DNA of 64,000 nucleotides, from assembly GCF_057098645.1 (NCBI RefSeq), contig NZ_CM169472.1; one strand, written 5' to 3'. Below are positions 27,701-32,962 of the stretch, in pieces (within the stretch, counting starts at the first letter, position 1; every line of letters starts with the position of its first letter). The translations under genes were made by a program, and so were the position numbers. The notes under the pieces were generated by a model, which was not told the DNA's origin, did no database searches, and saw only the letters and a list, made by a program, of their open reading frames with translations.

Positions 27701-29378
27701 CTTCCCGGCGATGATTAGCGGACAGGAGCGTCTTGCCTGTATGGATGATGCCGCCAGGCTGCGCGATGCCCTCGGCGTACAACTACCAGAGTCTCTGCCA
27801 GAGATTTATTTGCATAGAGTCAGTTACCCGCTTCGCGACCTCTTTCTGCGCTATCTCCGGGCTCATGCTCTGGTCACGGCTGAACAACTGGCTCATGAGT
27901 TTAGTCTCGGTATTGCCATTGTCGAAGAGCAGCTTCAGCAACTGCGCGAACAGGGTCTGGTGATGAATCTGCAACAAGACATCTGGGTGAGCGATGAAGT
28001 ATTTCGTCGTCTGCGTTTGCGCTCGCTGCAAGCCGCCAGAGAAGCGACGCGTCCCGTTGCAGCCACGACCTATGCGCGATTGCTGCTGGAACGTCAGGGC
28101 GTATTACCCGCCACCGATGGTAGCCCGGCGCTCTTTGCCTCAACATCGCCAGGCGTTTATGAGGGCGTAGATGGCGTGATGCGGGTAATCGAACAGCTTG
28201 CCGGAGTCGGCTTACCCGCCTCACTCTGGGAAAGCCAGATCCTGCCTGCCCGCGTACGCGACTATTCGCCAGAAATGCTCGATGAATTACTGGCAACCGG
28301 TGCGGTTATCTGGTCGGGGCAAAAAAAACTGGGTGAAGATGACGGCCTGGTGGCACTGCATCTACAGGAATATGCTGCAGAATCGTTCACTCCCGCCGAA
28401 GCGGATCAGGCGAATCGTTCGGCGCTGCAACAAGCGATAGTCGCTGTTCTGGCTGACGGAGGAGCCTGGTTTGCACAACAAATCAGCCAACGGATACGCG
28501 ACAAAATCGGCGAATCGGTTGATCCCTCGGCACTGCAAGAGGCGTTATGGGCGCTGGTCTGGCAAGGCGTCATCACCAGCGATATTTGGGCACCGTTACG
28601 CGCCCTCACCCGCAGCAGTTCCAACGCACGCACCTCAACTCGCCGCAGTCACCGGGCTCGTCGTGGGCGTCCTGTCTATGCACACCCCGTCTCGCCGCGG
28701 GTATCTTACAACACACCAAATCTGGCTGGACGCTGGCCGTTATTGCAGGTGGAGCCACTAAACGATACCGAAAGGATGCTGGCGCTGGCGGAAAATATGC
28801 TCGACCGCTACGGCATCATCAGTCGTCAGGCGGTGATAGCCGAAAATATCCCTGGCGGGTTTCCATCGATGCAAACGCTTTGTCGAAGTATGGAAGACTC
28901 CGGGCGAATTATGCGAGGTCGTTTTGTAGAAGGTCTGGGGGGTGCGCAATTCGCTGAACGTCTGACTATTGACCGCTTGCGCGATCTGGCGACACAAGCC
29001 GCGCAAACGCGCCACTATACACCAGTGGCGCTCTCCGCCAACGATCCGGCTAATGTGTGGGGAAATCTTCTGCCCTGGCCTACACATCCGGCAACGCTGG
29101 TACCAACGCGTCGGGCGGGTGCGCTGGTGGTCGTTTCTGGCGGCAAATTGTTACTCTATCTGGCGCAAGGTGGCAAAAAAATGCTGGTCTGGCAGGAAAA
29201 AGAGGAATTACTCGCCCCAGAGGTTTTCCACGCGCTGACTACCGCACTGCGTCGCGAACCACGGCTGCGCTTTACGCTAACAGAAGTGAATGATCTACCG
29301 GTCCGGCAAACGCCGATGTTTACGCTGCTGCGTGAAGCGGGATTTTCAAGTTCGCCACAAGGGCTGGATTGGGGATAG
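24762..29378 (+). CDS. lhr: Large ATP-dependent helicase Lhr (superfamily 2)
   Basis: 1538 aa; Walker A (APTGSGKT) and DEVH box in the N-terminal helicase core. Confidence 0.92.
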   Translation: MADNPNPSSPLPDVFSPATRDWFLRAFKQPTAVQSQTWHVAARGEHALVIAPTGSGKTLAAFLYALDRLFREGGEDTREAHKRKTSRILYISPIKALGTDVQRNLQIPLQGIADERRRRGETEVNLRVGIRTGDTPAQERSKLTRNPPDILITTPESLYLMLTSRARETLRGVETVIIDEVHAVAGSKRGAHLALSLERLDALLHTSAQRIGLSATVRSASDVAAFLGGDRPVTVVNPPAMRHPQIRIVVPVANMDDVSPVASGTGEDSHAGREGSIWPYIETGILDEVLRHRSTIVFTNSRGLAEKLTARLNELYAARLQRSPSIAADAAHFESTSGATSNRVQSSDVFIARSHHGSVSKEQRAITEQALKSGELRCVVATSSLELGIDMGAVDLVIQVATPLSVASGLQRIGRAGHQVGGISKGLFFPRTRRDLVDSAVIVECMFAGRLENLTPPHNPLDVLAQQTVAAAAMDALQVDEWYSRVRRAAPWKDLPRRVFDATLDMLSGRYPSGDFSAFRPKLVWNRETGILTARPGAQLLAVTSGGTIPDRGMYSVLLPEGEEQAGSRRVGELDEEMVYESRVNDIITLGATSWRIQQITRDQVIVTPAPGRSARLPFWRGEGNGRPAELGEMIGDFLHLLADGAFFSGTIPPWLAEENTIANIQGLIDEQRNATGIVPGSRHLVLERCRDEIGDWRIILHSPYGRRVHEPWALAIAGRIHALWGADASVVASDDGIVARIPDTDGKLPDAAIFLFEPEKLLQIVREAVGSSALFAARFRECAARALLMPGRTPGHRTPLWQQRLRASQLLEIAQGYPDFPVILETLRECLQDVYDLPALERLMRRLNGGEIQISDVTTTTPSPFATSLLFGYVAEFMYQSDAPLAERRASVLSLDSELLRNLLGQVDPGELLDPQVIRQVEEELQRLAPGRRAKGEEGLFDLLRELGPMTVEDLAQRHTGSSEEIASYLENLLTVKRIFPAMISGQERLACMDDAARLRDALGVQLPESLPEIYLHRVSYPLRDLFLRYLRAHALVTAEQLAHEFSLGIAIVEEQLQQLREQGLVMNLQQDIWVSDEVFRRLRLRSLQAAREATRPVAATTYARLLLERQGVLPATDGSPALFASTSPGVYEGVDGVMRVIEQLAGVGLPASLWESQILPARVRDYSPEMLDELLATGAVIWSGQKKLGEDDGLVALHLQEYAAESFTPAEADQANRSALQQAIVAVLADGGAWFAQQISQRIRDKIGESVDPSALQEALWALVWQGVITSDIWAPLRALTRSSSNARTSTRRSHRARRGRPVYAHPVSPRVSYNTPNLAGRWPLLQVEPLNDTERMLALAENMLDRYGIISRQAVIAENIPGGFPSMQTLCRSMEDSGRIMRGRFVEGLGGAQFAERLTIDRLRDLATQAAQTRHYTPVALSANDPANVWGNLLPWPTHPATLVPTRRAGALVVVSGGKLLLYLAQGGKKMLVWQEKEELLAPEVFHALTTALRREPRLRFTLTEVNDLPVRQTPMFTLLREAGFSSSPQGLDWG

Positions 29379-29428
29379 AGAAAGGACTGACGGATGCCCG
29401 TTCGCATCCGTCAGTATTGCAGGACGGA

Positions 29429-29776
29429 TTATTCCGCGTCCGGCTCTTCAGACTTGTATTTAGCGGCAGTTTCTTTGATCAGCTGCTGCAGTTCGCCACG
29501 CTGATACATTTCGATCACGATATCACAACCGCCGACCAGCTCGCCGTCAACCCACAGTTGCGGGAAGGTCGGCCAGTTAGCATATTTCGGCAGTTCCGCA
29601 CGAATGTCCGGATTCTGCAGAATATCAACATAGGCAAAACGTTCGCCACATGCGGCAAGCGCCTGGACTGCCTGGGCAGAGAAACCGCAGCTCGGCAGTT
29701 TCGGTGAACCTTTCATGTACAGCAGGATCGGGTTTTCAGCAATCTGGCGTTGGATTTTTTCGATAGTGGTGCTCAT
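29429..29776 (-). CDS. grxD: Monothiol glutaredoxin Grx4
   Basis: 115 aa with the CGFS active-site motif. Confidence 0.93.
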   Translation of the reverse strand: MSTTIEKIQRQIAENPILLYMKGSPKLPSCGFSAQAVQALAACGERFAYVDILQNPDIRAELPKYANWPTFPQLWVDGELVGGCDIVIEMYQRGELQQLIKETAAKYKSEEPDAE

Positions 29777-30110
29777 TGTCTTGCTTCCTCAAACTTCTTT
29801 ACGGCAGTAATCTGACATTGTAGCGGGTCAGTGCGGCATCGGAAAATAACATTTTCATCACGCTTTAGCTATTTTATCCCTTTGCTCTATTTGTTGCATT
29901 TCAAATATTCGTTTCTTCCCAGATGCACGACAAACTGGCGTATTTATAACCATTTTTAGCTTTCACTGCTGCATTTTTTTGCGCTCGCCAACGAAACGTA
30001 TTTTTTAACAATAAAAGCTATTAACTTTCTCTTCTTCTATGCATTAGAATCATCAAGTTTTGTAAATCAGACGCAGGCATGGTAGACCTGCCTTAACAGA
30101 GGGACGCTCA

Positions 30111-30938
30111 GTGGCGCGGATAAACCGTATTTCGATCACGCTCTGTGCTTTACTTTTTACCACCCTGCCTTTAACGCCTATGGCCCATGCTTCAAAGCAA
30201 GCCAGGGAGAGTTCTGCTACCACTCATATCACCAAAAAAGCAGATAAAAAGAAAAGCACGGCAACCACCAAAAAGACCCAGAAAGCCAGCCAGAAAACAG
30301 CGAAAAAAGCCGCCAGTAAAAGTACGACCAAAAGCAAAACCGCTTCTTCCGTTAAAAAATCTTCCATTACCGCTTCTAAAAACGCCAAAACTCGCAGCAA
30401 ACTCGCCGTCAATAAAACGGCCTCAGCCAGCTTTACCGAAAAGTGTACCAAACGTAAGGGCTATAAATCGCATTGTGTGAAAGTCAAAAATGCCGCGTCA
30501 GGAACCCTTGCCGACGCACACAAAGCGAAGGTGCAAAAAGCCACAAAAGTGGCAATGAATAAACTGATGCAGCAAATTGGTAAGCCATATCGTTGGGGTG
30601 GCAGCTCACCGCGTACCGGTTTTGATTGCAGCGGCCTGGTTTATTACGCTTATAAAGATTTGGTGAAAATTCGAATTCCGCGTACGGCGAATGAAATGTA
30701 TCACCTGCGTGATGCAGCACCTATCGAACGTAGTGAACTGAAAAACGGCGACCTGGTCTTTTTCCGTACTCAGGGACGCGGTACAGCCGATCATGTCGGT
30801 GTGTATGTCGGCAACGGCAAATTTATTCAGTCACCGCGTACGGGTCAGGAAATTCAAATCACTTCTCTCAGTGAAGACTACTGGCAGCGCCACTATGTTG
30901 GCGCTCGCCGGGTAATGACCCCAAAAACACTTCGCTAA
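30111..30938 (+). CDS. mepH: Peptidoglycan DD-endopeptidase MepH (YdhO), NlpC/P60 family
   Basis: Signal peptide, Lys/Thr/Ser-rich linker, C-terminal NlpC/P60 domain (catalytic Cys in DCSGLV, His in DHVGVYVG). Confidence 0.88.
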   Translation: MARINRISITLCALLFTTLPLTPMAHASKQARESSATTHITKKADKKKSTATTKKTQKASQKTAKKAASKSTTKSKTASSVKKSSITASKNAKTRSKLAVNKTASASFTEKCTKRKGYKSHCVKVKNAASGTLADAHKAKVQKATKVAMNKLMQQIGKPYRWGGSSPRTGFDCSGLVYYAYKDLVKIRIPRTANEMYHLRDAAPIERSELKNGDLVFFRTQGRGTADHVGVYVGNGKFIQSPRTGQEIQITSLSEDYWQRHYVGARRVMTPKTLR

Positions 30939-31065
30939 AACTTTACCCTGTTGTTACGGCAACAGGGTAAGTTCATCTTTTGTCTCACCTTTTAATTTGC
31001 TACCCTATCCATACGCACAATAAGGCTATTGTACGTATGCAAATTAATAATAAAGGAGAGTAGCA

Positions 31066-31647
31066 ATGTCATTCGAATTACCTGCACTACCATATGCTAA
31101 AGATGCTCTGGCACCGCATATTTCTGCGGAAACTATCGAGTATCACTACGGCAAGCATCATCAGACTTATGTCACTAACCTGAACAACCTGATTAAAGGT
31201 ACCGCGTTTGAAGGTAAATCACTGGAAGAGATTATTCGCAGCTCTGAAGGTGGCGTATTCAACAACGCAGCTCAGGTCTGGAACCATACTTTCTACTGGA
31301 ACTGCCTGGCACCGAACGCCGGTGGCGAACCGACTGGAAAAGTCGCTGAAGCTATCGCCGCATCTTTTGGCAGCTTTGCCGATTTCAAAGCTCAGTTTAC
31401 TGATGCAGCGATCAAAAACTTTGGTTCTGGCTGGACCTGGCTGGTGAAAAACAGCGATGGCAAACTGGCTATCGTTTCAACCTCTAACGCGGGTACTCCA
31501 CTGACCACCGATGCGACTCCGCTGCTGACCGTTGATGTCTGGGAACACGCATATTACATCGATTATCGCAATGCACGTCCTGGTTATCTGGAGCACTTCT
31601 GGGCGCTGGTGAACTGGGAATTCGTAGCGAAAAATCTCGCTGCATAA
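31066..31647 (+). CDS. sodB: Fe superoxide dismutase
   Basis: 193 aa, recognised SodB ([20 protein letters not shown]...). Confidence 0.95.
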
Positions 31648-31757
31648 TAACTGATGGCAAATGCAGCATTGCCTGATGCGCTTCGCTTACCATGCCAACG
31701 CGGATGAGGCGTTAACAGCGCATTCGGCAAGATAAATCGCACGTTGTCAGCAACTGT

Positions 31758-31787
31758 AACGCAGAAGGTTATCCTTCTGCGTTTTTG
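31758..31787. terminator. Bidirectional terminator between sodB and ydhP
   Basis: aacgcagaagg-ttat-ccttctgcgtt followed by TTTTTG. Confidence 0.6.
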
Positions 31788-31792
31788 TTTAA

Positions 31793-32962
31793 TTAGCTGT
31801 TAGCAACGCAAACTGTTTCAGGTTGTTTTCTGGCTGACATAAACACCAGCAATAATGCCAGTCCCGCGACAATCGCCCCCATCACCGGCACAAAGCTGTA
31901 TCCCAGCCCAGCGGAAATTACCGCGCCACCAGCAGCTGCTCCCAGCGCATTTCCAAGATTAAAGGCACCAATATTGACTGATGAAGACAGACCTGGCGCT
32001 TCACTGGCGACACGCATCACGCGCATCTGTAACGGCGGTACGACCGCAAAGGTTGCTGCGCCCCACACCACCATGCTAATAGCTGCGCCGAACTCATTGC
32101 GGGCCAGGAACGGGATTGCCAGCATAATCACCATCAGCAGCAACAAAAAGCCTTTCAACGTGCCGTTAACTGAACGATCTGCCAGTTTGCCGCCGAGATA
32201 GTTACCGATAGAGAATCCGACACCAATCAGCACCAGCATTGCCGTGACGAACACTGGTGTTGCGTGGGTAATACTTTGCAGTACCGGAGAGATATAGGTG
32301 TAGAGAGTAAACATTGCACCAGCTCCCAGTACCGTCGTCAGCAATGCAGACAGCACCTGTGGACGCATTAATACCGCCAGCTCTTTTTTCACTTCAGGTC
32401 GTGCCCCTGCACCACCTTTAGGTAATGAGAAGAACAGACTTACCATTGAAATCACGCCCAGCCCCGCCGTTGCCAGAAATGACATCCGCCAGCCGATGGT
32501 TTCACCCAACCAGGTCGCCGCCGGCACGCCACCGATATTTGCCAGGGTTAACCCCATAAACATAGTGGCAACTGCGCTGGCCTGTTTATGTTTTGGCACC
32601 ACGCTTGCGGCCACGACTGAACCCAAACCAAAAAATGCTCCGTGATTCAGGCTGGTCAAAATGCGTGAAAGCATCAGGGTCATATAATCCGGCGCGATGG
32701 CGGAAAGTACGTTGCCTAGCGTGAAAATTGCCATCAGGAAAATCAACGCACTGCGGCGGGCACGATGAGAAAGTAGAAGCGTCATCAGCGGCGCGCCAAC
32801 CATTACGCCAACTGCATAGGCACTGATTAACATTCCGGCAGCGGGAATCGAGACATCCACACCGCGCGCAATGACGGGCAACAAGCCCATTGGCGAGAAC
32901 TCCGTTGTCCCGATACCAAACGCGCCAATCGCCAGCGCCAGCAACGGATAGTTAATTTTCAT
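31793..32962 (-). CDS. ydhP: MFS transporter YdhP
   Basis: 389-aa 12-TM MFS-like protein in conserved position. Confidence 0.88.
   Translation of the reverse strand: MKINYPLLALAIGAFGIGTTEFSPMGLLPVIARGVDVSIPAAGMLISAYAVGVMVGAPLMTLLLSHRARRSALIFLMAIFTLGNVLSAIAPDYMTLMLSRILTSLNHGAFFGLGSVVAASVVPKHKQASAVATMFMGLTLANIGGVPAATWLGETIGWRMSFLATAGLGVISMVSLFFSLPKGGAGARPEVKKELAVLMRPQVLSALLTTVLGAGAMFTLYTYISPVLQSITHATPVFVTAMLVLIGVGFSIGNYLGGKLADRSVNGTLKGFLLLLMVIMLAIPFLARNEFGAAISMVVWGAATFAVVPPLQMRVMRVASEAPGLSSSVNIGAFNLGNALGAAAGGAVISAGLGYSFVPVMGAIVAGLALLLVFMSARKQPETVCVANS

Follow-up and report, generated by a model that had tools for sequence, protein, structure and literature searches.

Composition, length variation and possible role of the N-terminal segment of the peptidoglycan endopeptidase MepH

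MepH (YdhO) of Escherichia coli K-12, an NlpC/P60 enzyme classed as soluble periplasmic by signal-sequence prediction (PMC7516022), is described in the passage of PMC11211486 that cites Singh et al. 2012 as a DD-endopeptidase acting on 4-3 cross-links. With two other enzymes it shares the redundantly essential task of opening the E. coli cell wall for growth, mepH being redundant with mepS and mepM (PMC11211486), and loss of mepH alone is tolerated (PMC6301998); a mepS mepM mutant that also lacks nlpI (or prc) depends on MepH for its growth in LB (PMC8996183). The control of MepH is partly understood: Prc degrades it, NlpI speeds that degradation both in vivo and in vitro (PMC8996183), and the disordered N-terminus of MepS is an NlpI-binding element that becomes ordered upon binding (PMC11211486). 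The present analysis concerns the mepH gene within a 64,000-nucleotide stretch of contig NZ_CM169472.1 (RefSeq assembly GCF_057098645.1; hereafter the window), where it occupies positions 30111..30938 of the plus strand (275 aa, GTG start), and in particular the region between its signal peptide and its catalytic domain. An earlier, sequence-only reading of the same DNA had placed a basic, disordered linker, rich in lysine, threonine, serine and alanine, at 30190-30480, i.e. MepH residues 27-123, quoting the peptide KKADKKKSTATTKKTQKASQKTAKKAASK, which the open reading frame (ORF) at 30111..30938 contains.

The gene is the same as that of K-12, in the same grxD-mepH-sodB context. The catalytic parts of the two proteins are identical, and the N-terminal segments differ only by a KASQ insertion and by L98 for H98, K-12 carrying the 271-aa allele and the window the 275-aa allele. 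The evidence set out below makes it almost certain that the segment is, descriptively, a polycationic, low-complexity tail of the mature enzyme with no predicted structure, subject to repeat-linked insertions and deletions (indels), the DNA of which gives rise to spurious ORFs. The original observation is thus correct and ordinary, being that of a routine low-complexity region in a known gene; what is added here is the assignment as a tail rather than a linker, a conserved cysteine hairpin, allele frequencies with a repeat-mediated origin of the indels, the recognition of frameshift-derived chimeric database entries, and evidence for constraint at the level of composition.

Anatomy and composition of the N-terminal region

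An alignment of 120 database relatives, together with a curated set of 50 full-length orthologues, divides MepH into four parts, i.e. a signal peptide, a variable polycationic stretch, a conserved cysteine motif and a catalytic part, an anatomy that agrees with the earlier placement of the segment between signal peptide and NlpC/P60 domain. Mean pairwise identity among the 50 orthologues is 33% for the variable stretch, 70% for the cysteine motif and 89% for the catalytic domain. The signal peptide, as read from the sequence, is of the Sec type and covers residues 1-27 (30111..30191, plus strand), with an N-terminal MARINR, a hydrophobic core and a cleavage site between AHA and S. The polycationic, K/T/S/A-rich tail then spans residues 28-107 (30192..30431, plus strand), as delimited by composition, by predicted structure and by divergence; within it, residues 28-49 are somewhat better conserved, including S28, Q30, K42, K47 and K48.

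The compositional bias is pronounced. Residues 28-123 (30192-30479) contain 25 K, 17 S, 16 T and 14 A, i.e. 75% K/T/S/A among 96 residues; with 28 basic and 3 acidic residues they have a net charge of +25, as befits the basic segment described earlier, and that of the tail proper (28-107) is about +21. When all 15,022 stretches of 96 residues from the 61 ORFs of the window that reach 150 aa were ranked, the most K/T/S/A-biased of them (77%) was in mepH; those outside mepH average 25.5% (standard deviation 6.3%) and reach at most 55%, and the binomial P for the mepH bias against the window's own background is about 2e-23. The K/T/S/A share is 83% in the core, residues 41-111, compared with 27% in the catalytic part, residues 131-275, and Shannon entropy calculated over 20 residues is 2.2 bits at residues 41-90 compared with 3.1-3.7 elsewhere in MepH. 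Since Tandem Repeats Finder returned no rows for 30000-31000, the segment is compositionally biased and not a tandem array. The claim of K/T/S/A-rich low complexity therefore holds for most of the span first assigned to it, but not for its C-terminal end, since the bias ends near residue 108 and the cysteine motif follows.

The tail is also probably disordered, as the sequence-only reading had proposed. In a second AlphaFold model (132 sequences), residues 28-107 form neither helix nor strand and have predicted local distance difference test (pLDDT) values of 48-59, compared with 93-98 for catalytic residues 141-275, and a charge-hydropathy calculation places the tail on the disordered side. 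In sequence and fold searches of the PDB, MepS, Clostridioides difficile Acd24020 and LytE matched the catalytic domain only, and residues 28-125 were covered by no solved structure. Two considerations temper the assignment, namely that a first AlphaFold model (50 close orthologues) was poor throughout, domain included (mean pLDDT 47), and that pLDDT is a proxy for disorder only.

The term linker, by contrast, is not retained. The only cysteine of the signal peptide, C12, is preceded by Leu, so MepH lacks a lipobox, and the mature protein has neither a lipobox nor a transmembrane segment. Because the signal peptide is removed, no anchor is present and nothing is attached upstream, residues 28-107 are, as judged from the sequence, a free N-terminal tail of the mature enzyme rather than a connection between two parts.

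The two-cysteine motif FTEKCTKRKGYKSHCVKVK, recognised from orthologue conservation and from both AlphaFold models, comprises residues 108-126 (30432..30488, plus strand) and has the consensus TEKCTxRKGxKxxCVKVK. C112 (codon 30444-30446) and C122 (codon 30474-30476) are invariant in the 50 orthologues, with K111, T113, R115, K116, G117 and K119 nearly so; among the single-domain relatives compared, the cysteine pair is limited to the closer ones. Both models have strands at residues 108-113 and 121-126 (pLDDT 59-78 in the second), such that the motif is predicted to be a conserved two-cysteine β-hairpin and not a low-complexity sequence. As this strand register would set C112 opposite C122, and MepH is periplasmic, a disulfide probably links the two.

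The catalytic part (30507..30935, plus strand) consists of a helix, residues 133-153, followed by the Pfam NLPC_P60 domain (PF00877), which matches residues 157-267 with 125.8 bits against a cut-off of 23. The catalytic C173, within a DCSG motif, and H228 are both invariant in the 50 orthologues. The third position of the catalytic triad is Q240 (30828-30830), likewise invariant in that set, which aligns with a His of C. difficile Acd24020.

Length alleles, alternative frames and frameshifts

That the segment varies in length between strains is borne out both within E. coli, by a 12-nt (4-aa) indel and by rare deletions that shorten the protein to as little as 210 aa, and between genera. In the orthologue alignment that the earlier reading had proposed as a check, the region between signal peptide and catalytic part measures 91-118 residues, depending on the genus, with its flanks constant, the signal peptide being of 27 aa and the catalytic part of 145 aa in every full-length orthologue; residues 28-107 contain insert columns at 15 positions in the alignment of the 50 orthologues.

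The common indel is the 12-nt segment CCAGAAAGCCAG (30278..30289, plus strand), which adds KASQ and which, on alignment with a K-12-type genome, is present here and missing in K-12. Its limits are marked by a 7-nt direct repeat, CCAGAAA, with copies at 30278-30284 and 30290-30296. Typing of complete E. coli genomes with a 60-nt probe spanning the junction found the long allele (275 aa, as here) in 1,847 (34.5%) and the short, K-12 allele (271 aa) in 3,504 (65.4%), and a spread sample of 59 genomes contained only these two lengths. As E. albertii and Citrobacter have residues at the KASQ position, comparison of the sequences points to the long form as the probable ancestor, from which the short one probably arose by a slippage deletion.

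Ten rarer in-frame deletion alleles of E. coli, from 262 down to 210 aa, are present in the protein database. Nine of them fall in the tail. For eight of these, a single deletion in either the 275-aa gene of the window or the K-12 gene gave the observed protein exactly or to within one residue; the ninth, P0010 (262 aa), could be fitted only if two mismatches were allowed. All nine have junction microhomology, of 1-9 nt. The clearest repeat is the 9-nt sequence ACCGCTTCT, which occurs directly repeated at 30339-30347 and 30369-30377 (plus strand) and between which loss of 30 nt yields the 261-aa allele P0011; the other tail deletions have 1-5 nt at their junctions. In the tenth, P0017 (253 aa), which the reconstruction did not reproduce, the deletion lies 3' of the tail, in the first catalytic helix. 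The tail DNA, A-rich and T-poor, is full of short direct repeats and runs of five to six A, and it is there that the in-frame indels arise. All the rare alleles are singletons, most of which come from draft or metagenome assemblies, and assembly error may account for some of them. Of 5,424 complete genomes, no more than 2 are without 20% or more of the segment, one of these being E. coli ST2747, in which mepH is annotated as a pseudogene. In E. coli, then, length variation is essentially biallelic and large deletions are very rare.

Some individual alleles deserve separate mention. The same 183-nt deletion, within the block 30309-30496 and with GCCGC as junction microhomology, occurs on the long (214 aa) and on the short (210 aa) background (P0038 and P0048), which implies recurrence, recombination or a shared artefact; it removes residues 67-127, both conserved cysteines included. 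In ST2747 (NZ_CP007394.1) the 5' part of mepH is lost and the annotated pseudogene is without an N-terminus, and in E. coli TUM2805 (NZ_CP128950.1, a complete genome of 4.09 Mb) only the last 116 nt of mepH remain, beside grxD.

The two alternative-frame ORFs that the sequence-only reading had set down as spurious both exist, i.e. a K/R/P-rich ORF of 97 aa in the +1 frame (30187..30480, plus strand) and an antisense ORF of 75 aa (30224..30451, minus strand). The DNA of the tail segment is 41% A and 15% T, such that stops are scarce in other frames, which explains both. It is most improbable that either is a real overlapping gene, even though both are long, the plus-strand one is uninterrupted in E. 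coli and in E. albertii, gene callers have annotated it when fused by frameshift to the catalytic domain (P0041, below), and in close comparisons the synonymous divergence (dS) of the tail part lies below that of the domain (0.21 and 0.77, respectively, against E. albertii). When codon order was shuffled, an equal or longer open stretch in the +1 frame arose in 52% of trials, and the minus frames reached the observed open length in 7-35%. A Pfam search with both ORFs gave no matches; the +1 ORF contains stops in P0021 (a 79%-identical relative), Salmonella and Leclercia, and the antisense open stretches vary in frame and extent among orthologues. Of 27 substitutions in the segment relative to E. 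albertii, 5, 6 and 16 fall on mepH codon positions 1, 2 and 3, so that the fewest (5/27) affect position 1, which is the third, wobble position of the +1 frame, and the difference in dS is gone at larger distances. As shuffles, Pfam, orthologue stops and codon-position pattern agree, both ORFs are compositional artefacts. The low dS in the 5' part of mepH was itself weighed as possible evidence of such a gene and was rejected as such on account of the mepH-frame codon pattern and of its loss with distance.

A contrast in divergence within mepH is also apparent against K-12, there being one single-nucleotide polymorphism (SNP) in the 390 nt of 30111-30500 (signal peptide and tail) and 12, all synonymous, in the 438 nt of 30501-30938 (catalytic part). 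SNP density is uneven in this region, grxD having none in 348 nt, and the contrast therefore likely reflects a recombination mosaic.

Frameshifted forms of the gene are found in public data. The A6 run at 30354..30359 (plus strand), in codons K82-K83, has an A7 variant in public read assemblies, by which the signal-peptide frame is truncated and the +1 ORF is fused to the catalytic domain; the fusion product, of 246 aa, is named a 'putative exported hydrolase' (P0041, with 101 member sequences). The A7 allele was verified in the DNA of two read-assembly contigs, and no exact match to it was found among 5,424 complete RefSeq genomes. That the A runs make mepH a contingency gene, switched on and off by frameshifting, is scarcely credible. 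It is true that 309 nt contain seven A runs of 5 nt or more, including three A6, and that the A6-to-A7 allele, which truncates the secreted protein, occurs in assemblies from several sequencing runs; the longest run, however, is A6, Tandem Repeats Finder reported nothing, and only isolated pseudogenes such as that of ST2747 were seen. Since A7 is missing from all 5,424 complete genomes, phase variation was dropped as an explanation. Ribosome sliding on poly-A was also considered and was set aside, the longest run being of only six A.

In four database proteins (P0013, P0025, P0007 and P0071), part of the tail (about 30231-30400) is read in the +1 frame before the mepH frame is restored. The stretch between the paired frameshifts is still strongly basic and K/R/P-rich; these may be real variants or homopolymer sequencing errors.

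Constraint on the tail and its possible role

Among the 50 orthologues the tail keeps within narrow ranges of composition, with 23-31% K+R, 1-5% D+E, 31-44% S+T, a net charge of +15 to +23 and a length of 71-96 residues. The ratio of nonsynonymous to synonymous substitution rates (dN/dS, Nei-Gojobori) against E. albertii amounts to 0.23 in the tail and to 0.02 in the domain, and that of the tail is 0.19-0.28 against the somewhat more distant P0021 and Citrobacter; comparisons beyond these are saturated and alignment-dependent. These values point to purifying selection on the tail, weaker than on the domain. Of 53 more distant single-domain relatives with a recognisable signal peptide, 31 have a tail with a net charge of at least +8 (median 92 aa). 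In none of the 132 proteins scanned was a LysM or peptidoglycan-binding Pfam domain found, the SH3 family SH3_CYT4 occurring in 3 of them. As charge and composition are kept and sequence is not, with dN/dS about 0.2, the comparison suggests a composition-dependent role for the tail.

In the mechanism proposed here, the tail would act via its charge and flexibility, its exact sequence being secondary. A flexible, positively charged arm might keep soluble MepH, which is without a folded wall-binding domain, on the polyanionic surfaces of peptidoglycan and envelope, and may also help to present the enzyme to NlpI-Prc for degradation. If the tail works by composition, small changes in length should be nearly neutral, and loss of its charge or of the whole tail would be selected against. 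Description and functional proposal taken together make up the best overall explanation, one that is favoured with some reserve; the functional part by itself, that the tail acts by its composition, is tentative and may well prove wrong.

Several observations weigh against this proposal. Binding of the tail to peptidoglycan is deduced purely from its charge, and in the literature searched on MepH, MepS and NlpI-Prc no mention of the MepH N-terminal region was found. A BLASTP comparison of MepH residues 28-130 with MepS detected no similarity (E = 4.8). The tail has a median of 8% hydrophobic residues and is without those that MepS uses for contact with NlpI. Natural alleles lack 27-61 residues of the tail, some of them both cysteines as well, from which it follows that much of the tail is dispensable for viability, but mepH is redundant with mepS and mepM.

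The deletion alleles also bear on the main rival, in which the tail is a functionless neutral spacer, any length of which suffices and the composition of which results only from mutational bias and the need to be soluble and without a fold. Such a spacer could account for the low identity of 33% with indel columns throughout, for in-frame deletions of 9-61 residues in natural isolates, and for the persistence of basic character where parts of the tail are read in the +1 frame (P0013, P0025), and the redundancy of mepH, which is dispensable alone (PMC6301998), is in keeping with it. It fits less well with dN/dS of 0.19-0.28 in the closer comparisons, well under 1, with the narrow ranges of charge, K+R, S+T and length in the 50 orthologues, or with the recurrence of basic tails in distant relatives; moreover, the deletion alleles are singletons and no more than 2 of 5,424 complete genomes are without a large part of the segment. 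A neutral spacer is, on this evidence, considered unlikely, though it is a serious contender.

A second rival would make the tail a specific NlpI-docking element or degron, which folds on the adaptor and delivers MepH to Prc. The precedent of MepS, in which a disordered N-terminus becomes ordered when it binds NlpI (PMC11211486), and the acceleration by NlpI of Prc degradation of the whole of MepH (PMC8996183) are in keeping with it, and the conserved islands at residues 28-49 and 108-126 could be short binding motifs. However, Prc also degrades MepH without NlpI, and the contacts of MepS with NlpI are hydrophobic ones, for which the tail has almost no residues. As sequence similarity to the MepS N-terminus is also undetectable, membership of the MepH tail in a MepS-type class of NlpI-binding elements is not supported, and specific docking is regarded as improbable.

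The composition-based proposal may be taken further, in that the tail might constitute a charge-only targeting and regulation module that keeps soluble MepH-type endopeptidases on the anionic sacculus in place of the folded LysM or SH3 domains of other NlpC/P60 enzymes, and that, together with the cysteine hairpin, sets the rate of removal by NlpI-Prc, the 4-residue polymorphism and the rare deletions then being a natural tuning of hydrolase dosage. This extension is speculative and held to be rather doubtful. Should wall binding or NlpI-Prc turnover prove to be under the control of the tail or of the hairpin, this would offer a handle on the regulation of MepH.

Genomic setting and comparison with related systems

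The identification of the gene as mepH, made in the sequence-only reading, is secure in several respects, resting on the ORF list, identity and synteny. At the DNA level it matches mepH of E. coli O145 RM9872 (WP_000101188.1) with 100% identity and that of K-12-type genomes with 97%; among 5,426 complete E. coli genomes, 5,423 carry the annotation peptidoglycan DD-endopeptidase MepH for this region, and the Pfam match is to NLPC_P60. By sequence, the gene is thus an orthologue of MepH, a known peptidoglycan DD-endopeptidase of the NlpC/P60 class (peptidase family C40). The gene order, lhr - grxD(-) - mepH - sodB - ydhP(-), is the same as in K-12, and grxD upstream and sodB downstream of mepH are also found in Salmonella, Citrobacter and Leclercia.

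A Shine-Dalgarno-like AGAGGGA at 30098-30104 lies seven bases 5' of the GTG start. Start annotation is inconsistent between genera, e.g. in Salmonella enterica (GCA_006644965.1, 801-1655) mepH is called with 284 aa from a start 11 codons upstream, whereas the conserved GTG/VARINK start would give a protein of 273 aa. On the other side of the gene, 3' of the stop codon, a terminator-like hairpin with a 13-bp stem and a T-rich tail (30942..30971, plus strand) probably acts as a terminator between mepH and sodB; no matches were returned when 29300-31800 was scanned against Rfam.

For annotation, the segment carries two practical consequences: its A-rich DNA yields false ORFs, and frameshifted assemblies yield chimeric 'putative exported hydrolase' proteins, which are now in public databases.

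Of the known systems, the paralogue MepS (Spr) is similar to MepH in that a disordered N-terminal segment precedes the NlpC/P60 domain, in that the catalytic domains superpose, and in that degradation by Prc is assisted by NlpI (PMC11211486, PMC8996183). The segments themselves differ. That of MepS is of about 36 residues, is lipid-anchored to the outer membrane, is not polycationic and makes hydrophobic contacts with NlpI, whereas that of MepH is of about 80 residues, has a free N-terminus and a net charge of +21, and is nearly without hydrophobic residues.

Ser/Thr- or Lys-rich low-complexity segments of variable length are also a feature of the Gram-positive NlpC/P60 hydrolases LytE, CwlO and Listeria p60, where they join folded wall-binding modules (LysM, SH3b or a coiled coil) to the catalytic domain. 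MepH likewise has a low-complexity segment on an NlpC/P60 domain, but is without a wall-binding module, and its tail is therefore terminal and not a connector. Envelope lipoproteins of the LpoB type have disordered periplasmic linkers in which length and composition outweigh sequence, and which tether a domain to its membrane anchor across the periplasm. The MepH tail is also a periplasmic disordered region, but it belongs to a protein that has no anchor.

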